Shown here in pieces: positions 5,797 to 24,391 of a stretch of DNA of 64,000 nucleotides; the stretch's first letter is position 1, and every line of letters begins with the position of its first letter. The position numbers and the translations under genes were made by a program. Location of the stretch: assembly GCF_053078305.1 (NCBI RefSeq), contig NZ_CP166879.1. One strand, given 5' to 3'. A model generated the notes under the pieces. It was not told the origin of the DNA. It made no database searches and saw nothing but the letters and a program-made list of their open reading frames with translations.

Positions 5797-6228
5797 ATGA
5801 ATGAACATCACACTGTGGCAGCAACAGATGATTCAGGTCTTCAGATCAGTGGTGACAATTCTGTCACGGTGCTGGCAGAAGTGCGTTGCAGTCGTTCGGC
5901 GTTTCGTCGTGCGGGGTTCCTGTTCACGCGTGGACGTCAGCAGGTTGAGGTCACCCCGGAGCAGCTTGCCCGACTGGAGGCGGAGCCATGCCTCACTGTG
6001 CGAATACTACAGACGTCTGCTGATGATGCGGGGAGCGTGGCGGGTGTGGTTCATGCAGTGGCCTGTACAGATTTAGCCGAAGCCGAAGCCGAAGCCGAAG
6101 CCGAAGCCGAAGCCGAAGCCGAAGCCGAAGCCGAAGCCGAAGCCGAAGCCGAAGCCGAAGCCGGACAGGATGCTCCCCGGAAAAAGACCGGTAACAAAGC
6201 GAAACAGGCGAAAAAGGCCCGCGCATGA
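5797..6228 (+). CDS. gp35-like small head-region protein with (Ala-Glu)14 linker and Lys-rich tail
   Basis: 143 aa. The N-terminal domain resembles the FluMu/HI1506-type domain (RRAGFLF...TPEQLARLEAEP). It contains the hexanucleotide repeat. Confidence 0.6.
   Translation: MNEHHTVAATDDSGLQISGDNSVTVLAEVRCSRSAFRRAGFLFTRGRQQVEVTPEQLARLEAEPCLTVRILQTSADDAGSVAGVVHAVACTDLAEAEAEAEAEAEAEAEAEAEAEAEAEAEAGQDAPRKKTGNKAKQAKKARA
6076..6159 (+). repeat. perfect tandem hexanucleotide repeat (GCCGAA)x14, in frame (AE)14
   Basis: Counted directly: 84 nt of uninterrupted GCCGAA, in the frame of the 5797..6228 ORF. Confidence 0.98.
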
Positions 6229-6644
6229 ATTACGCCACTGAAACCGATATGCGGGCGCGTTACCGCGAGGATTTGCTCAGGCCGTTACTGGCTGTGCCCC
6301 GTTCGGATGAGCCGGACACGCGCAAGCTGAACCGGGCGCTGACAGATGCGTCAGCCCTTATCGACAGCTATCTGTCCGCCCGTTACACGCTGCCGCTGGA
6401 GGTTATTCCGGCCGTTCTTGTTCAGCACTGTTGCGCGATTGCCTTTTATTACCTGTGCGATCAGCGAGCCTCCGATCAGGCGCGTGACCGTTACCGTGAA
6501 GCGCTGGCCTGGCTGAAAGATGTCATGAACGGCAATGTGCCGGTCGGTGTGGATACGAACGGTGCGGCCCCTGAATCCGGGGATTTACCACAGGTTCTGT
6601 CTGATGCAGCGGTATTCGGGCGCAACCAGAAGGGCTTCATATGA
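6225..6644 (+). CDS. head-tail connector-type protein (Mu gp36-like, DUF1320 type)
   Basis: 139 aa with ATGA overlap to the upstream gene. N-terminus MNYATETDMRARY... fits the DUF1320 pattern; correct position. Confidence 0.65.
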   Translation: MNYATETDMRARYREDLLRPLLAVPRSDEPDTRKLNRALTDASALIDSYLSARYTLPLEVIPAVLVQHCCAIAFYYLCDQRASDQARDRYREALAWLKDVMNGNVPVGVDTNGAAPESGDLPQVLSDAAVFGRNQKGFI

Positions 6645-7201
6645 TTACGGAAACCGAACAGGCATACATCGCCCGTATCCGTGAGTATTTCGGGAATGAA
6701 CTGGTGTCTGTTGACACGCATCCCGGCGACTGGAGCGACAGCGTACTGCGCACCATGCTGATTAACGCCCCGGCGATCTACGTTGCCTGGCTGGGTGCCG
6801 GTGAAGGCCGTACCCGTGGTCGTCTGGTCAGTCACTGGGTGTTCTACGTCATCGGCGACATGCTCAACGGGCGTGAGGCCAGCCGTCCCGGACTGTATCA
6901 GATTGTGGCCCGGCTGATTGCCGTGCTTAACGGCTTCAGAACAGAAAAAACCTCACCGCTTTACTTTGAAAAGGCGGTCAACGGTTACACCGAAACCCAG
7001 GCGGACAGTGGTGCGGTGATGTATGCGCTTTATTTCTCCTGCGAGGAAATGATCGCGCCACTGACGGATATCAGCTCGCTGGACGACTTCCTGCGTCATT
7101 ACGAAACCTTTGTGGAGCCGCCCGGTACGCCGCCGTTTGAGGCACATATTGATTTGCCGGGGAACACGACAACGGCGGTCGAACCGCCGGAGGAACTGTA
7201 A
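6641..7201 (+). CDS. Mu gp37-like protein (DUF1834 type)
   Basis: 186 aa, translationally coupled; position equivalent to Mu gp37. Confidence 0.6.
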   Translation: MITETEQAYIARIREYFGNELVSVDTHPGDWSDSVLRTMLINAPAIYVAWLGAGEGRTRGRLVSHWVFYVIGDMLNGREASRPGLYQIVARLIAVLNGFRTEKTSPLYFEKAVNGYTETQADSGAVMYALYFSCEEMIAPLTDISSLDDFLRHYETFVEPPGTPPFEAHIDLPGNTTTAVEPPEEL

Positions 7202-7447
7202 ATGAAAACCATCTTTATCAAACCCGCGCCGGGACGCCTGATTCGTGATCCCGACACAATGCGCCCGCTGGCACAGGAGGGGGAGGAAAAGCCCTTCACG
7301 CCGTTCTGGTGTCGGCGTCTTGATGACGGCGATGTCATTCAGGCTGAAAAAGCCGCTGAAGAGGCTCCGGCTGTATCTGCGGATGCAACGACTGCGACAG
7401 AAAAACCGGTCGCCCAACCGGCATCCGATAAGGAGAAACCGCAATGA
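7202..7447 (+). CDS. Mu gp38-like small protein
   Basis: 81 aa. MKTIFIKPAPGRLIRDPDT...WCRRLDDGDV pattern matches small proteins preceding Mu-type sheath genes. Confidence 0.55.
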   Translation: MKTIFIKPAPGRLIRDPDTMRPLAQEGEEKPFTPFWCRRLDDGDVIQAEKAAEEAPAVSADATTATEKPVAQPASDKEKPQ

Positions 7448-8946
7448 TTAATTTTGACGGGATCGGTAATGACCGCCGTATACCGCTGATTGAGGTTGAG
7501 TTTAATAACTCCATGGCTGTCACCGGCACCCCGGCACAGCGTCAGTGTGTACTGCTGTTTGGTCAGGCGAGAATGAAAGAGAATGCCGTGGACGGTACCG
7601 GTGTTCTGGATGTTCCGGTCAGGATCACCCGTGCGTCTCAGGCAACAGAACTCTGGGGGCGCGGCTCCATGATTGCCCTGATGGTGGCGGAATTTATCGC
7701 CATCAATCCTGATGCTGAACTGTATGCCATTGCTCAGGGGAATGGCACCGGACAGGCAACGGCTGCGGCCATGAATCTGACCGGAACGGTCACCCGTGAC
7801 GGGATTGTTTATGCCTGCGTGGGGGGGCGGCGTTATACACTCCCGGCACCAAAAGGTAAGAAAGGCAAAGAACTGACCGACGAGCTGGCCGCGCTGATCA
7901 ATGCCGATCCTGACGCGCCCTTCACGGCCTCCTCTGGTGCAGGAAGTGGTGATAATGGCGCAGGTCTGAAAGGGTCTCTGGGGATCACCGCCCGCTTTAC
8001 CGGTGAATGCTCCGTGCATGATGTGCGCCTGAACTATCACGACGGGGAAGCAACCCCGGAAGGAATACAGGTCGCTATAGCCTATCCGAAACAAAAAGCG
8101 GCTAACCCGGATATCACCCGAAGCGTGGCGGGTATGGGCGATCGCCAGTACAACTATGTCGTCATGCCCTATAAGGATGATGCAAACCTGAAAATCATCA
8201 GTGATGAGCTTCTGAAACGCTGGGGACCGGCCAAAATGTCTGACGGCGTGCTGTGGCTGGCACATACCGGCACGTTTGGTGAGGTGCAGGCATTCGGGGC
8301 AAAACGCAATGATTTTCTGGCGACCTGCACATCCATTCCCAAAGCCCCTGAACCGGATTACCTCTGGGCCGCGGCGGTCTGCGCCACCTGTGCACCCTCT
8401 CTGGGAGCAGATCCTGCGCGTCCGCTTCAGACGCTGGCGCTTCCGTCACGCATGGCCCCGGCTCCGGCCGATCGTCTGACGCGTGAAGAGCGTAACAGTC
8501 TGCTGTGGGGAGGGATTGCCTCGGTCAGTGTGGCTGCCGGTGATGTGGTTCAGATCGAACGTCAGGTGACCATGTATCGCCAGAACGTGTACGGCGAAAG
8601 TGATCCCAGCTATCTGGATGTGGAAACCATCTACACCCTCTCCTGGCTGCGTTATTCCCTGCGTACTTTTATCACACAACGTTTTCCGCGCCATAAACTG
8701 GCTGATGACGGGACGCCCGTTCGTGCCGGTCAGAATATCGTGACGCCGGAGATCATGAAGCTTCAGTTAATTTCGCTGGGTGAAGAGTGGGTGGAACTCG
8801 GGCTGGTCGAAAATCTGGACACCTTTAAAAAGAATCTGCTTGTGGAGCGTAATGCGTCAGATCGAAACCGTCTTGACGTGTTATGCACGCCGGATCTGGT
8901 TAACCAGTTCCGCTTCCTGGCAGCACAGATCCGTTTCATTTTGTGA
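7444..8946 (+). CDS. contractile tail sheath protein (Mu L-like)
   Basis: 500 aa (Mu L is ~495 aa). Followed by tube gene, chaperone and tape measure. Confidence 0.85.
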   Translation: MINFDGIGNDRRIPLIEVEFNNSMAVTGTPAQRQCVLLFGQARMKENAVDGTGVLDVPVRITRASQATELWGRGSMIALMVAEFIAINPDAELYAIAQGNGTGQATAAAMNLTGTVTRDGIVYACVGGRRYTLPAPKGKKGKELTDELAALINADPDAPFTASSGAGSGDNGAGLKGSLGITARFTGECSVHDVRLNYHDGEATPEGIQVAIAYPKQKAANPDITRSVAGMGDRQYNYVVMPYKDDANLKIISDELLKRWGPAKMSDGVLWLAHTGTFGEVQAFGAKRNDFLATCTSIPKAPEPDYLWAAAVCATCAPSLGADPARPLQTLALPSRMAPAPADRLTREERNSLLWGGIASVSVAAGDVVQIERQVTMYRQNVYGESDPSYLDVETIYTLSWLRYSLRTFITQRFPRHKLADDGTPVRAGQNIVTPEIMKLQLISLGEEWVELGLVENLDTFKKNLLVERNASDRNRLDVLCTPDLVNQFRFLAAQIRFIL

Positions 8947-9937: not shown

Positions 9938-12013
9938 ATGGCCCGAAATCTCAGAGCATCTCTGATAGTTGATTTGCTCGGCAATATCTCAGCCAAATCC
10001 CGCCAGTGGTCTCAGGAGCTGGGGGCATTCTCACGCTCCGGCCAGGCGGGGCTGGGTGGTCTGGGAAATGCTGCCCGCCGTGCCGGGCAGGAAACAGATG
10101 TACTCGGAAGCAGGATGCAGCGCACGCTGGCCGGGGTGCGGGGCAGTATCCGCCATGTCACTTCTGATTTTGACCGTCTTCAGGGCAGTATTACCGGCAC
10201 CATCGGGCGGATCAGCAATCTTTACGGAATGCTGGCCGGTGGTGCTGCTGTATATGGCTTTAACCGGGGATTTATTCGCCCGGCAGCGGAGATGGAAACC
10301 TATATGATTCGCCTGAACTCCCTTTACAAAGGGGATCGGGCGAAAACGGATGATGTCCGCAGGTGGGCAATACAGAATGCGAAGGAAACCACCTGGGGGC
10401 TGGCTGGCGTCATGCAGGAATATACGTCCAGTCTGGGCTTTGGTATGAGTGACAGGGAGGCCCGAAATTTTGTCACCATGCTTCAGGATCAGGGTGCCGT
10501 GGGCGGCTGGTCACTGTCCGATGCACAGGGGGCATCCCTGCAACTGAAACAGATGTATGCAAGAGGCAGTATTCAGGCGGCGGATGCAAATATTCTTGCC
10601 ACCTACGGCATTAATGCCTACCGCGTGCTGGCTGATCGTCTGGGTGTGGACCAGAAAGTGGTCAGAAAACTTGGTGAAAAAGGGCTGCTTGGGCCGGACA
10701 GTATTCGCCTGTTATTTCAGACGCTGGCGGAACAGGCCAGGGGAGCACAAAAGGACGCAATGAATTCCTGGAGTGGCCTGACGGCCATGATGGGTGACGT
10801 CTGGGACCAGTTTGCCCGGGATGTGATGGACAGTGGGCCATTTGAAAAACTGAAGGGTAATCTCAGGGGATTTCTTTCATGGGTTGACAGTGCCAAATCT
10901 GATGGCAGTTACCATTCCCTGGCGGAAAGCACGGCATCAGCCATGAACCAGGGCTTTGAGTATGCCCGTGATGCAGTGACAGGGTTTTATCAGGCGATCA
11001 GAAAGGTACGCGACACGCTTCAGGCTCTGCGGGATGCGGGCTATGGTGATGCGCTGGATCGCATTGGTCAGGGGGCACAGACTGCCGCGAAATACCTGCT
11101 GTACATGTATCTCGCCACCCGTGCCCTGAAAATGGCGCGGGCTGTCGGAACGGGGATTATACGTCCGGGTGCTGCATTGCTGGGATACGGATTATCAGCG
11201 GCGGCCTTCCTGACTTCACCTTTCCGGCGCTCTCCTCCGGCCGGAACACCACCAGGCACATCTCAGGGACGAGGGCAACGTTTTATGAACTTTCTTACCG
11301 GGGTAAATCCGGCAGCCGTTCAGCCAGTGCTTGTAACAAACTGGCCCGCAGGAGGACTGTCCGGCACCGGCGCGACCGATACATCCTCAGGCGGACGTCA
11401 GGGACGGGGCCGCAGGAAACGCGGACCGGGGCGCGGAAGACCGGTCACGCCTCCCCTGCCACCGTCCCCTGTACCACCGTCGCCCTCTTCTGGTGGGTCA
11501 GGGTTCTGGGGGCGCATGATGGGGCGCGCCGGTGGGTTGCTTTCGTCTGCCGGTAACCGCATGGGACTGGGGCGTTTCTCCGGCTTTTTCCGCAGTGCCG
11601 GTGGACTGGCTGGACGGCTGGGTGGCGGTGCCCTGTGGGCTGGCGCGATGGCAGCCCCGGTTCTGCTGGATGGCAGCGCCAGTATCACAGACAAGGGAGA
11701 AGCGGTCGGCTCTCTTGCAGGCAGTATTGCCGGTGGTGCGCTGGGGGCGGCAGCCGGACCTGTGGGGATTGCCATTGGTTCTACGGTGGGCAGCTATCTC
11801 GGTAACTATCTGGGGGGGTGGCTGACTGAAGCCTGGCAGAAATTACGGGGCAGTGATAATGAAAGCAGTGGACAGGCGGTACAAAAAGCCTCTGCCCGTG
11901 TGGAGCTGGTTGCCCCGGAAGGGTGGCAGGCTCGCAGTATTGATATTGATGACACGTCCGGTCACGGACTGGATGTGAATGTCTGGAACGGAGGGAATTA
12001 TGGCCTCTGGTGA
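9938..12013 (+). CDS. tail tape measure protein
   Basis: 691 aa. Helical N-terminal two-thirds, Gly/Pro/Arg-rich low-complexity region, and Gly/Ala-rich hydrophobic C-terminus. Canonical position. Confidence 0.85.
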   Translation: MARNLRASLIVDLLGNISAKSRQWSQELGAFSRSGQAGLGGLGNAARRAGQETDVLGSRMQRTLAGVRGSIRHVTSDFDRLQGSITGTIGRISNLYGMLAGGAAVYGFNRGFIRPAAEMETYMIRLNSLYKGDRAKTDDVRRWAIQNAKETTWGLAGVMQEYTSSLGFGMSDREARNFVTMLQDQGAVGGWSLSDAQGASLQLKQMYARGSIQAADANILATYGINAYRVLADRLGVDQKVVRKLGEKGLLGPDSIRLLFQTLAEQARGAQKDAMNSWSGLTAMMGDVWDQFARDVMDSGPFEKLKGNLRGFLSWVDSAKSDGSYHSLAESTASAMNQGFEYARDAVTGFYQAIRKVRDTLQALRDAGYGDALDRIGQGAQTAAKYLLYMYLATRALKMARAVGTGIIRPGAALLGYGLSAAAFLTSPFRRSPPAGTPPGTSQGRGQRFMNFLTGVNPAAVQPVLVTNWPAGGLSGTGATDTSSGGRQGRGRRKRGPGRGRPVTPPLPPSPVPPSPSSGGSGFWGRMMGRAGGLLSSAGNRMGLGRFSGFFRSAGGLAGRLGGGALWAGAMAAPVLLDGSASITDKGEAVGSLAGSIAGGALGAAAGPVGIAIGSTVGSYLGNYLGGWLTEAWQKLRGSDNESSGQAVQKASARVELVAPEGWQARSIDIDDTSGHGLDVNVWNGGNYGLW

Positions 12014-13349
12014 CGGTCGTGGTGCGTTCCGTGGTGTGCCGTTCCTCGTCTGGCGTGAGCAGCGCGAACGTGGCGGGCGAAACATTGTCCGTCGGGAATA
12101 TCCGTTACGGGAAACCGGTGGAGCAGACGATCTGGGACCTAAACTGGCTGAATTTACGTTCAGTGTACTTGTGATGGGGGATGATGTTCAGACGCAGCGA
12201 AATCGTCTGCGTGATGCCCTTCGTGCTCCCGGTGCCGGGGAGCTGCTTCACCCGGATTACGGCACGTTAAATGTGCTGATAAACAGCTTTGAAAGTCGTT
12301 ATAACGCCGCTGAACAGGGCGTGGTTGAGTTCACCATTAATGTCACGCCGGTAAGTGATGATACCGCACCTGCTGTCACACAGGACACGGCCGCCATTCT
12401 GGAGCAGAAGAGTACCACCGCGCTCGGGCAGGTTTTTGAAACCCTGGAAGCGGGCTGGACGGTGATTTCTGACGGAATGCACGATGTCCAGGCAATGACC
12501 GAAACCATCAGCGATAAGGTGTCCGCCCTGGAAAATGCCGTTTCCGGCATGGGGATTGTGCAGGATATCAGTGCCTTTACTGCCACGTTCACGGCGCTGA
12601 AAGGGAATGCCACGGCATTACTGACAGCACCTTCCCGCATGGCCTCATCTTTTGCGGGGCTTTTCAGTGCCCTGATCACCCTGCCATCGCTGCCGTCACT
12701 GTCTTCAGGAGGCCTGAATACCCGGCCCGGTGGCAGTATCGGCCGGACGACATCCGCCGTCTATCAGGGAATGCCGCAACTGTACAGGACATTATCTTCC
12801 CTGCGTTACGTGCTGGATGAGCAGGATAATCCGCAGACTCTCATCGGTCTGACACCGGCAGCACAAAAGAATATTCGTCTGATACGGGCGGTAATGCAGA
12901 GTGCTGCCGTGGTGGCCCAGGCACAGACCGTGGGAAAACTGCTGGATCAGGTTCTCAGTCAGGAAACCCTGCCGGATAGTGACGCAGCCCACCGTACCTG
13001 GCCTGTCTGGCTGGAAAGTTCAGTCGATCTTCAGCGCATTAACCGTGACTTAAGCGAAGCGCTCGAACGGCAGGTGATGACACTGTCCGGGCAGGGGTAT
13101 ACCGCCACGGCGCTGACGCTTCGTGATGCCAGACTGGCACTGACAGAGGATCTGAATACACGGGGAGTTCAGCTACCCGGTGCAACAGTAGTGACTGTAC
13201 GTACCACCGAGCCTGCACTGGTGACCCTGTACCGTGCCACCGGGAACAGTACCGGCTGGCAACGTTTTGTGCGCCGTAACGGTATTGTTGATCCGCTGTT
13301 CATTCCCGGAGGCCATTCAGTGGAGGTGATTAGTGAGCAGCAGGGTTGA
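12000..13349 (+). CDS. DNA circularization protein N-like (Mu gp43)
   Basis: ATG at 12000 preceded by GGAGGG and overlapping the TMP stop. N-terminus ...FRGVPFLV matches the Mu N family start. The track ORF begins 21 nt earlier. Confidence 0.75.
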   Translation: MASGDGRGAFRGVPFLVWREQRERGGRNIVRREYPLRETGGADDLGPKLAEFTFSVLVMGDDVQTQRNRLRDALRAPGAGELLHPDYGTLNVLINSFESRYNAAEQGVVEFTINVTPVSDDTAPAVTQDTAAILEQKSTTALGQVFETLEAGWTVISDGMHDVQAMTETISDKVSALENAVSGMGIVQDISAFTATFTALKGNATALLTAPSRMASSFAGLFSALITLPSLPSLSSGGLNTRPGGSIGRTTSAVYQGMPQLYRTLSSLRYVLDEQDNPQTLIGLTPAAQKNIRLIRAVMQSAAVVAQAQTVGKLLDQVLSQETLPDSDAAHRTWPVWLESSVDLQRINRDLSEALERQVMTLSGQGYTATALTLRDARLALTEDLNTRGVQLPGATVVTVRTTEPALVTLYRATGNSTGWQRFVRRNGIVDPLFIPGGHSVEVISEQQG

Positions 13350-17130: not shown

Positions 17131-18017
17131 TGTATTTTGTCGACAACAATTCAGGTGTGACCGATATGCCACCACTGGCCCCCTCTCAGGGTACGCAGGT
17201 TAAATGGTTTACTGAAGGTGACGGACGCAAAGGGATCAGCCATATCGGTCAGGACTGGCTGAACATCGTGCAGGCAGAGCTGCTTGCCATTCTGACAGAA
17301 GGAAAGGTTCAGCCGGATAAGGCAAAACTGAACCAGCTGGTGACAGCCATTAAGGCAATCATTGCAGCAAACGCATACAGCCGGAAAAACAACCTTAAGG
17401 AGATTGCGGATGCAGGTGCAGAAGCACAGGCTGCTGCCCGCCGTCATCTGGGGCTGGGAGGATTATCAGGAAAAGACAGTCTGGCTGCTGCTGATGTGGG
17501 AGCACTGGAGAAATCCCGGAATTTTGACGATGTACCGGATAAACCGACGGCCCGCCTGAATCTTGATGTTTACAGTAAGGGAGAAGGCGATGAGCGTTAT
17601 CTGCGCAGGGACCAGAATGGCGCGGATATCCCGGACAAAGGAACCTTTATCGATAACCTCGGTTTACGGGAAACGGTAAATAAGGCTGCTGATGCCCTGC
17701 CATCGGGTGGAACCGCCGTGGCAGCGAATAAACTCGCCACCCCAGTAAATATTAATGGCGTTCCTTTCGACGGAACGCAGGATATCAATATTACATCGGG
17801 GATGACGCAGTCTGTGGCTGACTCACGTTATGTTCAAAGCATTCGAAGAGGTTCAAGGTCAACGATTGGAATGCAATATAATATTTTTGAAGTTCCTGAC
17901 GGATGCGTACTTACAGGGCTTGATGTCGCTGGTGATGGTAATGCAACGGTAACCGCATATTATCGCCCTGTTCAGTTTCTGATAAATGGTTCGTGGAAAA
18001 CAGCTTCCAGCGCATAA
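17130..18017 (+). CDS. S: tail fibre protein S (constant part plus currently expressed variable tip Sv)
   Basis: 295 aa. The frame crosses the left gix site at 17647-17672. The C-terminal tip is homologous to the silent cassette and to the lambdoid Stf tip (YYRPVQ...W[KR]T). Confidence 0.8.
   Translation: MYFVDNNSGVTDMPPLAPSQGTQVKWFTEGDGRKGISHIGQDWLNIVQAELLAILTEGKVQPDKAKLNQLVTAIKAIIAANAYSRKNNLKEIADAGAEAQAAARRHLGLGGLSGKDSLAAADVGALEKSRNFDDVPDKPTARLNLDVYSKGEGDERYLRRDQNGADIPDKGTFIDNLGLRETVNKAADALPSGGTAVAANKLATPVNINGVPFDGTQDINITSGMTQSVADSRYVQSIRRGSRSTIGMQYNIFEVPDGCVLTGLDVAGDGNATVTAYYRPVQFLINGSWKTASSA
17655..17788 (+). repeat. left arm of perfect 134-bp inverted repeat of the invertible segment
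   Basis: Exact reverse complement of 18906-19039, compared by eye base by base. Imperfect homology continues to about 17813. Confidence 0.9.
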
Positions 18018-19034
18018 AAGTGCAGTAGTTCAAAAAACAGATTATCTGAATAAATATATGATGATTTTGTCTTTTCAACAAAAACAAGGTGAAATAATGG
18101 AGCTTATTAACGTAAAACGATATTACCCGGAACACAAACCCTATGGTGAGGATGTTCAGTATTTCCAGAGTGAGGACGGAAGGGATTTTTATGAATCTCT
18201 CCCGCTTTTCACAAAGAAATACAAACTCTGTATTTCGCCTGTAACGGGTATTATCTGCTCTGTTGCTGAAGATGTCTCTGCTTTATATCCGGCAGGTTTT
18301 ACTGTTGTTGAAGTGGACGAACTGCCGGAAGGTGTGGATATTGACGGTAACTGGCAGTTTTCTGATGGCCTGATATCAAAGGTGCCGGTAAACTGGAAGA
18401 CGGTTGCTGAAAAGCGCCGCTCATCGCTGCTCCAGGAAGCCAACGAAACTGTGGATGACTGGAAAACGGAATTAAAACTGGACATGATTAGCGATGAAAA
18501 TAAATTACAGCTGACGCGCTGGATGGCGTATATCCGACAGCTTAAAGAAATGCACTTTAATGATATTGCCAGTGAGGGGCATTACCAGGCGATTCCCTGG
18601 CCGGAAAAACCGGAATAATTCAGAGGGTGCATTCAGCACCCTTTTCTGTGGTTTACACTGAACTTACCGTTCTCCAGGCATTATTAATATAAATCTGAAC
18701 CGGGCGATAATAGACCCCACCGATATTGTCCGCAGACCGGGAGCCGGTTTCCTGCACGTTAATACCGGAAAGCATACAACCGGAAGGTGCGCTGTAATTC
18801 CATGACATTTCATTGCCTCCGGGTGAATGATAGCTCTGTGCTCCAAGCTGAACATTCTGTACATACCGGCCATCTGCGGTTGACTGCGTCATTCCTGACG
18901 TGATGTTGATATCCTGCGTTCCGTCGAAAGGAACGCCATTAATATTTACTGGGGTGGCGAGTTTATTCGCTGCCACGGCGGTTCCACCCGATGGCAGGGC
19001 ATCAGCAGCCTTATTTACCGTTTCCCGTAAACCG
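17660..19034. mobile_element. Gin-invertible (G-segment-like) DNA segment, ~1.37 kb
   Basis: Bounded by inverted 26-bp gix-like sites: 17647-17672 TTATCGATAACCTCGGTTTACGGGAA and 19022-19047 TTCCCGTAAACCGAGGTTTCAGGGAT. A serine invertase gene lies adjacent. Confidence 0.8.
18097..18618 (+). CDS. U: tail fibre assembly chaperone (Mu U / lambda Tfa family)
   Basis: ATG at 18097 after AAGGTGA. 173 aa (Mu U is ~175 aa). The N-terminal motif SEDGRDFYESLPLF parallels SEDGQDWYECQSLF of the lambdoid Tfa at 37334. Confidence 0.75.
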   Translation: MELINVKRYYPEHKPYGEDVQYFQSEDGRDFYESLPLFTKKYKLCISPVTGIICSVAEDVSALYPAGFTVVEVDELPEGVDIDGNWQFSDGLISKVPVNWKTVAEKRRSSLLQEANETVDDWKTELKLDMISDENKLQLTRWMAYIRQLKEMHFNDIASEGHYQAIPWPEKPE

Positions 19035-19039
19035 AGGTT
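18653..19039 (-). CDS. silent alternative tail-fibre C-terminal cassette (Sv'), promoterless, expressed only after inversion
   Basis: Minus-strand frame is open from just inside gixR (TGA at 19042-19040 closes it outside) to the stop at 18653. Its first ~45 codons are identical to S residues encoded at 17655-17788. Confidence 0.75.
   Translation of the reverse strand, partial: NLGLRETVNKAADALPSGGTAVAANKLATPVNINGVPFDGTQDINITSGMTQSTADGRYVQNVQLGAQSYHSPGGNEMSWNYSAPSGCMLSGINVQETGSRSADNIGGVYYRPVQIYINNAWRTVSSV
18906..19039 (-). repeat. right arm of perfect 134-bp inverted repeat of the invertible segment
   Basis: Exact reverse complement of 17655-17788. Confidence 0.9.
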
Positions 19040-19101: not shown

Positions 19102-19662
19102 ATGCTGATTGGCTATATACGCGTATCAACAAATGACCAGAACACAGGTTTACAAAGAAATGCGCTGGAATGTGCAGGATGTAAGCTGATTTTTGAAGAT
19201 AAAATGAGCGGAAAAACAACGCAGCGGCCGGGACTGAAGCGGGCACTGAAGAAACTAAAACCCGGTGACACGCTGATGGTCTGGAAACTGGACAGGCTGG
19301 GGCGCAGTATGCGCCACCTTGTTGCGCTGACAGATGAATTACAGCAACAGGGGATAAATTTTCGTAGTCTTACTGACAACATTGATACGTCAACCCCCAT
19401 GGGGCGCTTCTTTTTTCACATAATGGGTGCGCTGGCAGAAATGGAGCGTGAATTGATTGTCGAACGGACACGGGCTGGTCTTGCAGCTGCCCGTGAAAGG
19501 GGACGAACCGGTGGCAGACCCCGTCGTCTCACGCAGGAACAATACGAGCAGGTCGGGCGTTTACTGGCCGGGGGTGTCAGCCGAAGACAGGTGGCACTTA
19601 TTTTTGATATCGGCCTTTCAACCCTTTATCGTTATTATCCTGCAAGCATTTCGGAAAAATAA
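19102..19662 (+). CDS. gin: serine DNA invertase (Gin/Hin/Pin/Cin family)
   Basis: 186 aa. MLIGYIRVSTNDQNT...VWKLDRLGRS...GINFRSLTD...MGRFFFH is near-collinear with Mu Gin as recalled. Sits beside gix sites. Confidence 0.92.
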   Translation: MLIGYIRVSTNDQNTGLQRNALECAGCKLIFEDKMSGKTTQRPGLKRALKKLKPGDTLMVWKLDRLGRSMRHLVALTDELQQQGINFRSLTDNIDTSTPMGRFFFHIMGALAEMERELIVERTRAGLAAARERGRTGGRPRRLTQEQYEQVGRLLAGGVSRRQVALIFDIGLSTLYRYYPASISEK

Positions 19663-19752: not shown

Positions 19753-21810
19753 ATGAATATTATGACGTCCAAATGGGTTCAACTATCATCAATGCCCGGA
19801 AACTTTACCGTTAAAGTTTCCGGTGGTACAGCGGCATTTCTTGAGGCTCCTTTTCCTCCGGCTGAAACGAAAGGAGGAATGACATTTGCTGACTGTCTCA
19901 TCAGTTTTAATACACAGGATTGCCTGTGGGTAAGGCCAGTATCCGGTGATCCGAACGTGGAAATTACCGGAGCGGGTATTGGTGCTGTCATTCCGTTAAG
20001 TGCTGATGTTGCCGGTACTACTGAACCGTCAGACTGGGATAATGCTGAAACACATACCCGTCCGGCAGGAAATGAAACGGCTTCCAGCTCCCCTTCCTGG
20101 TATTACGTGATTGTTATAGCCGGTCAGTCCAATGCTTCATCTTATGGTGAAGGGTTGCCCCTGCCGGATTCTTATGATCGTCCTGATCCACGTATTATGC
20201 AGCTGGCACGCAGGAATACACAAACCCCCGGAGGTATTCCCTGCAAATACAATGAAATCATTCCAGCAGATCACTGCCTTCATGATGTTCAGAATATGAG
20301 TCTGCTGAACCATCCAAAAGCAGACCTGAAAAAAGGGCAGTATGGTTGTGTGGGTCAGGGACTTCATATTGCGAAAAAAGTATTACCGGTGATTCCTGCT
20401 GATGCCGGGATTTTACTGGTTCCCTGTGCCCGTGGCGGCTCTGCTTTTACAACCGGCGCAGTTGGCTCATTCGATCCGGCAAGTGGTGCAGCCGAGGCGT
20501 CACTACGCTGGGGAGTGGATACCCCACTGTATCAGGATCTTGTCAGTCGAACGAAAGCGGCACTTGAGGCGAATCCAAAGAATGTGCTGTTATCTGTCGT
20601 ATGGATTCAGGGGGAAGGAGACCTTAAAGCGACCCCGGCCCAGCATGGTGCCCAGTTTACTGCGATGGTGAAAAAATTCCGTGCGGATCTTGGTGCTTTC
20701 TCCGGTCAGTGTATTGGTGGTTCATCAGACAGTGTGCCGTGGTTATGTGGTGACACAACCTATGACTGGAAAGAGAAGAACCCGGCGGCATATGAAACCA
20801 TTTATAGCGGATATAAAAACCGGGCTTCCGAGAACATTCACTTTGTTCCACTGATGCACGATGAGTTCGGTAATAAAACCGCGACCAACCTGCCGGAGCA
20901 CGACCCGGATATCGCTTCTGCCGGGTATTATGGTGCGGAATCACGGGGAGATGGCAACTGGACAACAGCATCCAGGGCAACCCATTTTAGCTCCTGGGCG
21001 CGCCGTTTTCTGGTCTCAGATCGTTTTGCATCAGCAATTCTTAAATATGCAGGTCTGACCTCTGCATTTATTGCCGGTGTGGCCCCTGATGGTGAAGCCC
21101 TGCCTCAGCCCGCGCCGGGTGGAAAACCGGAAGCTCCGACAGGTAGTCAGCCAGGAAGCAGTGAGTCCCCCCAGCCGACATCCCCGTCACTCCGTACGCT
21201 GCTTTCACTTAAAGCATCAGCAGGGGAAGCCCCGGCTCAGGGATGGAAAATTACAGATGGTACAATCCAGCTGACGGACGAAGGTAAAGCGCTGACCGTA
21301 TCCAAACAAAGCGGAAAAACCTGGTCACTTACCCATGCGACCAGTGCTGCCGGAGAGCTGTTGCAGCATGGTGGTCAGTTGACCTGTAAATTCCGTCTGT
21401 CAGGTGAAGTAAAAGAAGGCCAGTTTGCTCTGGGTATTTACCTCCACACCGATACGGTCCCGGAAGGTGTAACCATGAGTGGTACAGGCACACCGTTCCT
21501 GATGGCGTATTATCTCCAGACAACAGGCGGCCAGTTAAATCTGATGCACCATAAAACAGGGGGGAATACGAAACTGGGATCATTTGGAGCCTACAATAAC
21601 CAGTGGCATACACTTGTCCTGAAGTTTACGGCGGGAAGTGCCCAGGTAACGCCTGTGCTGGATGGCACTCCGGGCCAGGCATTCCAGATGGTGAAAGATG
21701 CACTTTCCCCTGCCAAAGATACGCTGACACTGACAGATGTCACCAAAGGGGCAACTTATGGCGTGTCTTTTGAGAGCGTTGTCCTTGAGGTTAATACCCC
21801 TGCGGCATAA
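19753..21810 (+). CDS. SGNH/SASA-type (sialate O-acetylesterase-like) carbohydrate esterase fused to a LamG/ConA-like C-terminal domain
   Basis: 685 aa. GQSN block at aa 124-127 (nt 20122-20133) and VWIQGEGD block are typical of the DUF303/SASA esterase family (NanS-like). Pro/Ser-rich linker. The ~190-aa beta-rich C-terminus has a lectin-like pattern. Confidence 0.5.
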   Translation: MNIMTSKWVQLSSMPGNFTVKVSGGTAAFLEAPFPPAETKGGMTFADCLISFNTQDCLWVRPVSGDPNVEITGAGIGAVIPLSADVAGTTEPSDWDNAETHTRPAGNETASSSPSWYYVIVIAGQSNASSYGEGLPLPDSYDRPDPRIMQLARRNTQTPGGIPCKYNEIIPADHCLHDVQNMSLLNHPKADLKKGQYGCVGQGLHIAKKVLPVIPADAGILLVPCARGGSAFTTGAVGSFDPASGAAEASLRWGVDTPLYQDLVSRTKAALEANPKNVLLSVVWIQGEGDLKATPAQHGAQFTAMVKKFRADLGAFSGQCIGGSSDSVPWLCGDTTYDWKEKNPAAYETIYSGYKNRASENIHFVPLMHDEFGNKTATNLPEHDPDIASAGYYGAESRGDGNWTTASRATHFSSWARRFLVSDRFASAILKYAGLTSAFIAGVAPDGEALPQPAPGGKPEAPTGSQPGSSESPQPTSPSLRTLLSLKASAGEAPAQGWKITDGTIQLTDEGKALTVSKQSGKTWSLTHATSAAGELLQHGGQLTCKFRLSGEVKEGQFALGIYLHTDTVPEGVTMSGTGTPFLMAYYLQTTGGQLNLMHHKTGGNTKLGSFGAYNNQWHTLVLKFTAGSAQVTPVLDGTPGQAFQMVKDALSPAKDTLTLTDVTKGATYGVSFESVVLEVNTPAA

Positions 21811-21867
21811 TCGTGACGGCCGGGAATTTATCCGGCTGTAACATCAGTTAATAAGAGTGAGGCTTAT

Positions 21868-22047
21868 ATGACATATATAAACGTCTGCCTGCTGTATTTC
21901 TGCACGGTGGTTTGTTGTCTGTTGCTTGTCAGCGGTGGTTATAAAATTATTCGCAATTATTTTCGAAATAAAATTGATGCAGCTGCCGAGGAAAAGATAA
22001 AAAGCGGTGCTGTAATGCCGCAGCCGAAAGACTCCGGTCAGATTTAA
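21868..22047 (+). CDS. 59-aa single-pass membrane peptide (below ORF-track cutoff)
   Basis: ATG at 21868 with SD AGTGAGG. MTYINVCLLYFCTVVCCLLLVSGGYKIIRNYFRNK... has a hydrophobic N-terminus followed by a basic/charged tail. Confidence 0.5.
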   Translation: MTYINVCLLYFCTVVCCLLLVSGGYKIIRNYFRNKIDAAAEEKIKSGAVMPQPKDSGQI

Positions 22048-22082
22048 TTTTTTGTGAACCAGAAAAGGAAAGGAGAATATTC

Positions 22083-22333: not shown

Positions 22334-22367
22334 CAAACCGACAGCTTCTCCTGTCGGTTTGATTTTC
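22334..22367 (+). terminator. rho-independent terminator of the esterase operon
   Basis: 11-bp stem CAAACCGACAG / CTGTCGGTTTG, 6-nt loop, then ATTTTC. Confidence 0.65.
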
Positions 22368-22402
22368 ATGGGCGATGTATATACCAGTCAGAGGAAATAA
22401 TC

Positions 22403-22603
22403 ATGGACAAGAACAAAAAGCAGCCCGATACCAAAGGTCTGGAAATATTAAGCGCAGAAATTATCAATGCGCTACGTTCAGGACTTGATGAAAATACATT
22501 ACAGGATCGAAACTTCACCACTGCAATGTGGATAGCGATGCAGATCCTGTGTACCCCAAGATGCGCTATTTTTGCGGTTCGTGAGGGTCAGTTGACTCGC
22601 TGA
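22403..22603 (+). CDS. hypothetical 66-aa protein
   Basis: ATG preceded by GAGGAA. No recognisable family. Its 3' end overlaps a convergent ORF by 38 nt. Confidence 0.4.
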   Translation: MDKNKKQPDTKGLEILSAEIINALRSGLDENTLQDRNFTTAMWIAMQILCTPRCAIFAVREGQLTR

Positions 22604-22772
22604 TTGCCCGAATTACATCAGAAAAGCACGCGTTCCATAATTGCATAGCTGATGAATCACCAGCTGTATGAAAAGAGGTAAAGACACAACTGGTGGATGT
22701 CATTGCTGCAATTGTGATATCAGCTGCAATTCGCGCAGCCTGTAACTTTTGGTCGGTGGTCAGTTTATCCAT
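22566..22772 (-). CDS. hypothetical 68-aa protein
   Basis: ATG at 22772 preceded by AGGAGA (the track ORF starts 24 nt further upstream). No recognisable family. Confidence 0.4.
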   Translation of the reverse strand: MDKLTTDQKLQAARIAADITIAAMTSTSCVFTSFHTAGDSSAMQLWNACFSDVIRAISESTDPHEPQK

Positions 22773-22823
22773 TTTCTCCTGCCTGAACAGATGCATCTCT
22801 GCTTTACAGGAGGCCGGGGAATA

Positions 22824-23144
22824 TCATAGGATACACCACGAGCTCAGAGTGAAGCATTGATGCAGTTTTTTACAGATTGACCCAGAATAGTTCGCGCTAT
22901 CTGAGTCGCCATTTATGTAGTCCCGAAGTAAAGCATTGATGCAAACTTGTCTAAATCGGCCCAGCATAGTTCCAGCTATGCTGGGTTTCCCTTTTATGTA
23001 GTATCCTGTTGATTTGAAACATACTACATATACGCGCGATCCTACCTTCACTGGATAAAAAGTCAATAAAATGATCATTTTATGATCGTTTTCACCACCT
23101 AACTCTTCGTTTTCTTTAAGTAAATAATCACCGCCCTGAATCAT
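22824..23144 (-). CDS. doubtful 106-aa ORF spanning the tandem hairpin repeats
   Basis: No SD. The C-terminal half is encoded by the two ~80-bp repeat units and overlaps the putative mom regulatory region. May be non-coding. Confidence 0.2.
   Translation of the reverse strand: MIQGGDYLLKENEELGGENDHKMIILLTFYPVKVGSRVYVVCFKSTGYYIKGKPSIAGTMLGRFRQVCINALLRDYINGDSDSANYSGSICKKLHQCFTLSSWCIL
22850..23006 (+). repeat. two tandem, diverged ~79-81-bp repeat units, each with a hairpin
   Basis: AAGCATTGATGCA recurs at 22852 and 22931. CCCAG(A/C)ATAGTTC recurs, and TATGTAG recurs at 22914 and 22995. Unit 2 has a perfect 10-bp stem (22960-22969/22976-22985) plus a U-rich tail. Confidence 0.7.
23066..23087. 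promoter_or_regulatory. 18-bp perfect palindrome centred on GATC, plus an adjacent second GATC (candidate Dam-sensitive operator of the com-mom region)
   Basis: ATAAAATGATCATTTTAT (23066-23083) is self-complementary, with GATC at 23073. A second GATC is at 23084. Confidence 0.4.
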
Positions 23145-23190
23145 TGTTGATGACTTTTCAATCTATTTGTTGTATCAATTAAACAAATCG

Positions 23191-23215
23191 AATCGATCGT
23201 TTTTGTCGATCGATT
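23191..23215. promoter_or_regulatory. 9-bp inverted repeat AATCGATCG-N7-CGATCGATT, each arm carrying a GATC, just upstream of com
   Basis: Arms at 23191-23199 and 23207-23215; GATC at 23195 and 23208. In Mu, mom transcription is Dam/OxyR- and C-controlled. Confidence 0.4.
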
Positions 23216-23258: not shown

Positions 23259-23459
23259 ATGTATCGAAACATACGGTGCCGACACTGCAATAAGCTACTG
23301 GCACGGGCCAGTTTCAGTTATCTGGAAGTAAAATGTCCGCGCTGTAAAACCCTCAATCAAATCACATCTCCGAGCGCCACAGAGCACCCCACATACACAA
23401 GGAAATCCTGTCGTGGGGAACAGAAAGCAAGTCACATCCCGTATCATCAGCACGCCTGA
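23259..23459 (+). CDS. com: Com-like zinc-finger translational activator of mom
   Basis: 66 aa from the ATG after [14 protein letters not shown]...X17...CPRCKTLN parallels Mu Com CKNCNKLL...CPRCKRHI. Its 3' end overlaps the mom start, as in Mu. Confidence 0.8.
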
Positions 23460-24150
23460 ACTTATTCGCTATAACGACAATATCGTTGGTTATGGTTCCC
23501 GTGAGTTGCGGGTTGAGACAATAAGTTGCTGGCTGGCCAGACTGGTTATCGTCAATAAACATTACAGCCACCGTTTCGTAAATAACTCCTACCTTCATCT
23601 GGGCATATTTTCAGAACGGGAACTTGTTGGCGTAATGCAATGGGGTTACGCCCTTAACCCAAACAGTGGTGCACGCGTCGTAACGGGTACGCAGAACCGA
23701 GAATATATGGAGCTGAACCGGCTATGGATGCATGACTGTATGCCGAGAAACTCCGAATCAAGGGCAATCAGTTACGCGCTCAAGCTAATCAGGCAGCTTT
23801 ATCCGCAGGTACAGTGGGTTCAGTCGTTTGCAGATGAGCGTTGTGGCTGTCTTGGTGTCGTGTATCAGGCAAGCAATTTTGATTATGTAGGCAGCCATGA
23901 AACAATATTCTATGAACTTGATGGCGAGTGGTATCACGAGATTTGCAGGAATGCCATTAAACGAGGCGGACAACGAGGTGAACATCTGAGGGCTAATATC
24001 GACAGAGCCAGTGTGCATAAGTTCCGACAGTTTCGTTACATCCGGTTTCTGAACAAGAGGGCCAGAAAACGCCTCAACACAAAGCTATTCAAAGTCCAGC
24101 CTTACCCAAAACCACAAACAGTTAAAACTGGTTTGAAAGAGAGTGAATGA
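23413..24150 (+). CDS. mom: Mom-like DNA (adenine) modification protein
   Basis: 245 aa overlapping com. GNAT-like Mom-family pattern (KHYSHR...LGIF...LVGVMQWG...ELNRLW...[10 protein letters not shown]...SFADE...GVVYQASNF). Last gene before the phage end, as in Mu. Confidence 0.7.
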
Positions 24151-24259: not shown

Positions 24260-24391
24260 AAAAAATCGCCGCGCTATATGCCGCTGACCACAGCATTTAA
24301 ACAGAATATTGAACGTATCCGGCGTGAACGCCTGCCAGAAGAACTGGCATATGCGCTGAAACAACAACTGAGGATTGCGATAAAACGATGA
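24260..24391 (+). pseudogene. Z: 3' fragment (last ~43 codons) of minor tail gene Z, truncated by the Mu-like insertion
   Basis: Translation [43 protein letters not shown], versus the recalled lambda gpZ C-terminus ...VKIPMAVPLTTAFKQNIERIRRERLPKELGYALQHQLRMVIKR. ATGA overlap with U. Confidence 0.75.

Follow-up and report, generated by a model that had tools for sequence, protein, structure and literature searches.

A probable NanS-p-type sialate O-acetylesterase with a distinct N-terminal domain in an Sp18-type Mu-like prophage

In a stretch of 64,000 nucleotides from contig NZ_CP166879.1 of the RefSeq assembly GCF_053078305.1 (hereafter the window), a gene at positions 19753-21810 lies directly behind the tail-fibre genes S and U and the invertase gene gin of a Mu-like prophage. 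This location, proposed in an initial annotation of the window, is confirmed by S, U, gin, the inverted repeats, Com and Mom. Sequence comparison gives good support for the encoded protein being a sialate O-acetylesterase of the NanS-p type, and taken as a whole we consider it quite probable that it is a three-domain, phage-borne enzyme of this kind, encoded as cargo close to the right end of a prophage of the Sp18 family. The enzyme itself appears to be ordinary and well explained; the novelty appears to reside in its N-terminal domain and in the strict association of this form with Mu-like prophages, a combination that seems to be undescribed: a literature search, in which some key subscription papers were out of reach, yielded no paper that mentions a Mu-borne NanS-p or the N-terminal domain.

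The catalytic domain carries the assignment. In a search of the sequences of solved structures, residues 108-432 match E. coli NanS/YjhS (3PT5) with an E value of 3.6e-110, and the HMMER alignment of the two proteins gives 54.8% identity over 321 aligned residues. Pfam recognizes SASA (PF03629) at residues 119-315 with an E value of 1.6e-13 and a score of 51 bits, where the cut-off is 24.8; a second match, to DUF6645 (PF20350), covers residues 537-647 (E 6.3e-26). In NanS, Ser19 and His301 are catalytic, Gln18 and a glycine form the oxyanion hole, and a catalytic aspartate is absent (PMC9063846). The corresponding residues Gln125, Ser126 and His411 of the phage protein align to Gln18, Ser19 and His301 and do not vary across the 15 diverse homologues that were aligned, and Gly229, which is part of an RGGS block, aligns to the oxyanion glycine and is invariant among the homologues as well. 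With respect to the SGNH blocks, block I is GQSN, block II is RGGS, block III is replaced by QGE (residues 286-288), and block V consists of the histidine without an aspartate; the last two deviations are shared with NanS. His411 (nt 20983-20985) is embedded in a RATHFSS block, and RATH fits the RSSH/RASH/RPTH range given for the family (PMC10462455). The initial annotation had read the protein as an SGNH hydrolase of the SASA/NanS family from the GQSN and WIQGEGD blocks and had asked for a profile search and for an inspection of the catalytic serine and histidine. Both blocks are where it had seen them (residues 124-127, nt 20122-20133, and residues 284-290, nt 20602-20622), and the SASA match above the Pfam cut-off, the match to the NanS structure and the invariant Ser126 and His411 bear the reading out.

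The remainder of the protein is that of a NanS-p with one exception. The similarity to the NanS-p protein L0105 of phage 933W (53% identity) extends from residue 106 of the query through the C-terminus, and residues 65-684 fall into phrog_143 (E 1.5e-273), a PHROG of unknown function; a search of NCBIfam with the full-length protein gave no match. RefSeq names homologues either "DUF6645 domain-containing protein" or "sialate O-acetylesterase", and the 99%-identical WP_044078958.1 bears the former label. Three defining features of NanS-p are found here, namely SASA, the residues of the active site and the lectin domain at the C-terminus; two of the canonical description, the DUF1737 domain and the lambdoid location between Q and S, are not. 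The start codon is slightly ambiguous: an AGGA motif stands upstream of both Met1 and Met4, and RefSeq starts the 99%-identical homologue at Met14. The lack of an evident signal peptide, which had also been noted before, agrees with a hydropathy analysis (and no dedicated signal-peptide predictor), in which the Kyte-Doolittle mean over 12 residues does not exceed 1.0 in the first 30 windows, so that a hydrophobic signal-like segment is not seen at the N-terminus.

The C-terminal domain is supported as a lectin fold of the ConA type. Residues 481-682 match the chain of 6YP6, deposited as 'NanS-p', with an E value of 1.2e-42, and the nearest structural relatives beyond the own family are the sialic-acid-binding lectin domain of the Vibrio cholerae sialidase and domains of other sialidase structures. 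The sequence identity to the lectin domain of the V. cholerae enzyme (PDB 2W68, 1W0O) is only 14%, and sialic-acid binding by the phage protein is putative. Three of the four aromatic residues that have been proposed to form a carbohydrate site in the phi24B protein are kept (F558, Y563 and Y587), and the fourth position is deleted. The linker in front of this domain is composed to 83% of P, S, G, A, T, Q and E, and its length and sequence vary among the homologues. The Pro/Ser-rich linker and the beta-rich, lectin-like C-terminus had both been recognized in the initial annotation; the former, placed there at about residues 445-480, begins somewhat earlier (residue 433), and for the latter the nearest functional analogues do bind sialic acid.

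The exception is the N-terminus. Canonical NanS-p proteins start with DUF1737 (PF08410; residues 3-53 in the 933W protein) (PMC10462455). Here, an all-beta core of about 80 residues (approximately residues 9-81) is followed by a disordered linker (approximately residues 83-107). No Pfam family, PF08410 included, matches residues 1-118 at E<=10, and the domain left unassigned before (there put at about 115 residues) is still without a Pfam family. BLASTP finds no similarity to residues 1-62 of the 933W protein, and the first 105 residues do not align to it. Among 121 full-length homologues, 88 carry the present N-terminus, 33 lack it, and not a single one has both types; the DUF1737 segment of 933W is matched by none of the 88. 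An exhaustive HMMER search with residues 1-110 against 1.84 billion representative proteins returned five matches, four of which are fragments of the same esterase type, one of them 27% identical and with the same layout from the N-terminal domain to GQSN. The fifth, P0126, a repeat protein of 1445 residues rich in Ala, Gly and Thr, was judged to be compositional and was rejected. A word-indexed homologue search with the domain found E. coli fragments only, a GTDB scan with one genome per bacterial species did not find it, and no paralogue was detected elsewhere in the window (nothing below E 0.1). The structural model of the domain has no significant match to any tail protein. The domain is under purifying selection, with a ratio of nonsynonymous to synonymous substitution rates (dN/dS) of 0.11-0.16.

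The N-terminal domain and the rest of the protein have different histories. Compared with the common Sp18-type allele, the window protein shows 96-97% identity in this domain, but only 68% in the SASA domain and only 38% in the C-terminal domain, which is nearer to DUF1737-type proteins (58-62%). Compared with L014, which represents this allele, the proportion of synonymous differences is 0.09 in the N-terminal domain and 0.74 in SASA. At the DNA level, the identity to L014 is about 85% from gin to nt 20864 and 95% from nt 22069, inside the DUF826 gene, and the region 20865-22068 in between is largely unalignable, except for a stretch of 91 nt with 74% identity. This indicates that the 3' part of the esterase gene and the DUF1378 gene behind it were replaced by a recent recombination with another nanS-p locus. 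DNA similarity to 933W starts at nt 20101, i.e. at the beginning of the SASA domain. The available descriptions place NanS-p only in lambdoid prophages and with a DUF1737 N-terminus, and the DUF1737-type relatives are indeed found in the classical lambdoid late region, in the order Q, esterase, holin. Moreover, a DUF1737-type esterase with SASA and DUF6645 (P0088; locus L046, ENA ERZ28665940 scaffold_151, 6001-7878; a cluster of 1,558 member sequences) is encoded in a P2-like late operon, between holin, endolysin and DUF2570 and the tail-completion genes R and S. Because of the domain-wise identities, the breakpoints and the lambdoid and P2-like relatives, we regard the esterase-lectin portion as a module that is exchanged among at least three temperate-phage architectures, with the N-terminal domain staying with the Mu-like backbone. 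The gene has been preserved: among 44 related loci, 39 have a full-length open reading frame (ORF), premature stops occur in three (L017, L026 and L041), and 43 keep the catalytic motifs; for the other domains, dN/dS is 0.09-0.24 where dS was measurable.

The 44 loci, 35 of which were added by a scan of IMG/VR, were compared in their flanks by tblastn with the neighbouring proteins of the window. In every locus with flanking sequence, Mu-type gp47, gp48, S and U lie upstream of the esterase. The gene order common to annotated genomes and metagenome contigs runs from Mu_Gp45, GP46, Baseplate_J and Mu_Gp48, recognized by Pfam in loci whose gp47 and gp48 share about 86-100% identity with the window's, over S/U and usually gin to the esterase, DUF1378 and DUF826, and further to com, to either mom or a C5-methylase, and to the end of the prophage. 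In eight loci gin is missing, and the esterase still stands straight behind the tail-fibre genes. The host prophage is of the Sp18 type of O157 Sakai, with the Mu-type baseplate genes, the invertible S/U segment with gin, and com-mom of that family. Sp18, which is predicted to be intact, has its DNA packaged, yet mitomycin C does not induce it (PMC2669165); similar Mu-like phages in E. coli that produce Shiga toxin have been described as Sp18-like (PMC10132054). The most divergent relative, L045 (IMGVR_UViG_2744054454_000014, 9989-12343), is one of the loci without gin; its protein of 784 residues has an N-terminal domain with 35% identity and an extra C-terminal extension of about 100 residues, and its gene directly follows S and U, has neither DUF1378 nor DUF826 behind it, and is succeeded by an ORF of 130 codons and, where the window has mom, by a C5 DNA methylase.

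Among 50,697 deposited phage genomes, the N-terminal domain occurs in two records only, both of them annotated as Stx phages with an inserted Mu-like phage; Mu, D108 and SfMu have no match to the domain, and no isolated phage of the collection carries the gene. For SfMu, the PCR product from gin to mom is only 1.5 kb long (PMC4406740). By megablast, the gene is matched in 204 of 5,426 complete E. coli genomes, a count that may include cross-matches to lambdoid nanS-p, and the allele of the window is present over at least 80% of its length in 37 of them. One cluster of Mu-type proteins is represented on at least 1,000 contigs. Candidate strains with this allele are E. coli O91:H21 FWSEC0008, with 99.7% DNA identity, and 2012C-4502.

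Table 1. Features of the esterase gene and its surroundings in the window.
Feature	Position	Strand	Basis and remarks
Predicted esterase gene, Mu-type NanS-p paralogue	19753..21810, stop codon included	+	685 aa, ATG, uninterrupted ORF; Pfam SASA + DUF6645
N-terminal domain and linker, aa 1-107	19753..20073	+	takes the place of DUF1737 in canonical NanS-p
SASA / SGNH type-II catalytic domain, aa 108-432	20074..21048	+	3PT5 match; Ser codon nt 20128-20130
Pro/Ser/Gly-rich interdomain linker, aa 433-480	21049..21192	+	composition
C-terminal lectin-like jelly-roll domain, DUF6645, aa 481-685	21193..21807	+	
Invertible tail-fibre segment	17655..19039	.	182-nt inverted repeats, 17655-17836 / 18858-19039, 91%
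gin-type DNA invertase	19102..19662	+	Pfam Resolvase E 5e-51, HTH_7; phrog_125 DNA invertase
DUF1378 small protein, 59 aa, hydrophobic N-terminus	21868..22047	+	PF07125, E 9e-24
DUF826 small protein, 81 aa	22083..22328	+	PF05696, E 2.9e-15
Hairpin, 11-bp stem, 6 G-C pairs, directly after the DUF826 stop	22334..22361	.	consensus scan
com	23259-23459	+	Pfam Zn_ribbon_Com, E 3e-12
mom	23413-24150	+	Mom PF25680, E 3e-77

Upstream of gin, the tail-fibre gene S and the assembly gene U were recognized by their PHROG matches (tail fibre, assembly). The invertible segment holds a single U-type gene (17986/18094-18618, plus strand) between the variable end of S and an alternative S' end (18653-18976, minus strand), a layout with one U that is unlike the S-U-U'-S' of Mu. 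The segment is present in opposite orientations in L011 and L012, which are contigs from a single IMG genome and whose compared proteins are 100% identical to those of the window. Between gin and the esterase gene there is a spacer of 90 nt, and no terminator-like site was called between 19662 and 19753. The hairpin behind DUF826, which is terminator-like on both strands, is the likely end of a transcription unit made up of the esterase, DUF1378 and DUF826 genes. DUF1378 follows the esterase in most Mu-type loci, and DUF826 follows DUF1378 in most. At the protein level, a DUF1378 homologue with 54% identity stands behind nanS-p in 933W, and in some Stx phages nanS-p is reported to be separated from S by DUF826 and DUF1378 (PMC10462455); a megablast search of phages with the DUF1378-DUF826 region matched no records other than the two that contain an inserted Mu-like phage. 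A strict cassette of the three genes was considered and ruled out: the P2-like, the E. albertii lambdoid and the Mu-like L045 loci have neither DUF1378 nor DUF826.

Between the hairpin and com there are two ORFs on the minus strand (22566-22796, 76 aa, and 22824-23144, 106 aa), neither of which has a match in Pfam, as well as a hairpin with a 13-bp stem (22958-22987) in this unknown cargo of the Mu-like right end. For the region equivalent to 22366-23200, the annotation of strain 2012C-4502 gives a hypothetical gene with a frameshift. Behind com, the mom gene of the window alternates with a C5 DNA methylase of 350 aa (PF00145) in L004-L009 and L045, and it appears that the module for DNA modification is exchanged at one position in otherwise similar Mu-like prophages. 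The homology to Mu-like prophages reaches as far as about 24278-24282, which puts the prophage end at about 24278, and from 24279 on there is 99.9% identity to the tail regions of lambdoid prophages in other E. coli (minor tail protein U, major tail protein V, gpG and further genes). Judged by where it lies, directly ahead of U, the ORF that enters the junction has the look of a lambda Z-type tail gene's 3' end, and the Mu-like phage therefore seems to have entered a lambdoid prophage by transposition into one of its tail genes. That Sp18-like phages insert into other prophages has been documented (PMC10132054); the junction at about 24278/24279 is shared by no complete E. coli genome in the collection, and the transposase end of the Mu-like prophage falls outside the window.

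How would such an enzyme act? Beyond homology, catalytic residues, fold, context, mosaicism and purifying selection, we infer a substrate, a release by lysis and a benefit for the lysogen. The SASA domain would be a hydrolase of O-acetyl esters, whose most likely targets would be the 9-O-acetyl group of Neu5,9Ac2 and the O-acetylated sialic acids of mucin. It would work with Ser126 as the predicted nucleophile and His411 as the base of a dyad that would do without a catalytic aspartate, as in NanS, and with Gln125 and a backbone glycine as the putative oxyanion hole. The ConA-like lectin domain, mobile on its Pro/Ser-rich linker, may bring the enzyme to the sialoglycan and raise its local concentration. 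As there is no evident signal peptide, lysis of the cell by the phage is the most likely route by which the protein would reach the exterior. The de-acetylated sialic acid would then become cleavable by sialidases and could be used by surviving sibling lysogens, as has been proposed for the lambdoid NanS-p proteins, which, according to a review, are active on Neu5,9Ac2 and on O-acetylated sialic acids of mucin and confer a growth advantage to lysogens (PMC8065619).

Several observations weigh against this picture. The activity on Neu5,9Ac2 and mucin has been reported solely for the lambdoid NanS-p proteins and NanS (PMC8065619), and the substrate specificity is extrapolated from homologues with 53-55% identity. 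The C-terminal domain is only 42% identical to 6YP6, with one of the four aromatics proposed for carbohydrate binding deleted, and its ligand could differ for this reason. Since Sp18 is not inducible by mitomycin C, the data on the late induction of lambdoid nanS-p genes may not be transferable. A scan for promoters found seven sigma-70-like sites where 8.0 are expected by chance; we claim no promoter, and expression may be lysogenic or late. Finally, the conserved N-terminal domain has no role in an explanation that is purely enzymatic.

It is this last point that an alternative takes up, according to which the N-terminal domain anchors esterase and lectin on the particles of Sp18-type phages, so that the enzyme would act from the virion on the sialoglycans of mucus or of the host surface. 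Such a display is compatible with the enzymatic function, as it concerns the site of action, and we regard it as possible, if rather doubtful. A precedent has been reported in a 2026 preprint (10.64898/2026.04.10.717836): gp84, the NanS-p of phi24B, is among the most abundant proteins of the virion, its DUF1737 sits in hexameric form on the capsid hexons, and the protein later undergoes autoprocessing, once released. This capsid-binding DUF1737 is absent here and replaced by an unrelated domain, and the two N-termini exclude each other in all 121 homologues. Across the 44 loci, the backbone is Mu-like wherever flanks are present, and linkage of the domain to the backbone together with purifying selection is the pattern that is expected for a phage-specific interaction; yet the linkage could merely mirror where recombination occurs, and the fold of the domain is uninformative. 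The position of the gene straight behind the tail-fibre genes, even in the eight loci without gin, and the place of the P2-like homologue inside a structural late operon that runs from lysis genes to the tail genes R and S also fit with display. An SSP motif at residues 112-114 (nt 20086-20094), a few residues ahead of SASA, resembles 'SISSP', the processing site of gp84 proposed in the preprint, and may be a coincidence in a linker rich in Ser and Pro. By extension, NanS-p-type esterases could be modular virion proteins made up of an anchor and a payload, with DUF1737 as the anchor on the capsids of lambdoid and P2-like phages and the present beta-barrel as the one on Sp18-type particles, an idea that we put forward tentatively and do not favour.

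A role as a receptor-modifying enzyme is less likely than virion display, since the catalytic domain is of the NanS type and the lectin domain resembles those of sialidases, and we consider it improbable. The enzyme would in this case act on O-acetylated O-antigen or capsule and aid adsorption or block superinfection, in the manner of gp63.1 of phage G7C, a tailspike that is an SGNH-superfamily esterase and acts on a glycan. The gene does adjoin the tail-fibre host-range switch, and residues 211-315 have a weak match to the 'tail protein' family phrog_25867 (E 1e-6). In addition, P0109 (752 aa) joins DUF1737, SASA and DUF6645 to the phage tail Collar domain PF07484; this architecture hints that some members of the family are built into tail structures. 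A review has raised the possibility of such a role for NanS-p (PMC8065619). However, the catalytic domain is far nearer to the sialate-specific NanS than to any annotated tailspike, the closest relatives of the lectin domain beyond its own family are domains of the sialidase type, and a trimerisation or tail-adaptor domain was not detected in the esterase. From gp63.1 the protein would differ in its NanS-type catalytic domain and in that no tail-adaptor or trimerisation module was found. Sialic acid is not known to be common in the O-antigens of E. coli, which also speaks against this role. That the gene is a non-functional, unselected remnant of an old lambdoid recombination, for which one could cite the three loci with premature stops and the neighbouring ORF annotated as frameshifted in 2012C-4502, is hardly credible given the many full-length ORFs with intact catalytic motifs, dN/dS values of 0.09-0.24 across the domains despite saturated synonymous divergence, and several divergent alleles that share the architecture.

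The NanS-p-type enzyme that we favour differs in defined ways from its known relatives. With the lambdoid NanS-p proteins (933W L0105 / EDL933 z1466; phi24B vb_24B_21, i.e. gp84) it shares the SASA domain, the Pro/Ser linker, DUF6645, the variants of the SGNH blocks (GQSN, QGE, RxxH), the location in a prophage and, often, the subsequent DUF1378 and DUF826. In contrast to them, it has the unrelated all-beta domain at its N-terminus, and it belongs to the prophage of a transposable Mu-like myovirus, with a position between S-U-gin and com-mom rather than the Q/stx-holin position that is seen for 933W and a DUF1737-type homologue, so that the logic of late transcription from Q and pR' is not applicable. 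NanS/YjhS has the same catalytic domain, with the equivalents of the three active-site residues and no catalytic aspartate, but it is a chromosomally encoded single-domain protein (the solved chain has 337 residues), whereas the phage cargo adds the N-terminal domain, the linker and the lectin domain. The P2-like P0088 has SASA and a C-terminal domain that, with 58% identity, is among the closest after the own allele, and it likewise comes from a myovirus and from a late-region position; it differs in its weak DUF1737 N-terminus, in lying between the lysis genes and R/S, and in the lack of DUF1378 and DUF826.

The NanS-p proteins are believed to make the O-acetylated sialic acids of gut mucin available as food to Shiga-toxin-producing E. 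coli, and the strains accumulate copies of the genes: published counts of nanS-p alleles are seven or ten for EDL933 and five for O104:H4. As the descriptions put nanS-p into lambdoid prophages and with DUF1737, copies of the Mu type may escape such counts. The breakpoint of recombination is sharp and coincides with the domain boundary, and it shows the esterase-lectin module to be mobile between unrelated temperate phages. If DUF1737 is a capsid anchor, the variant described here is a natural domain-swap experiment, in which the same payload is joined to a different, backbone-linked N-terminal domain within another phage architecture, and the idea of anchor and payload becomes directly testable. 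Should this idea hold true, Mu-like phages would have in the N-terminal domain a module for attachment to the virion that had so far escaped recognition, and these transposable phages would carry an enzyme on their surface that edits sialoglycans, for example to dwell in mucus or to penetrate it.

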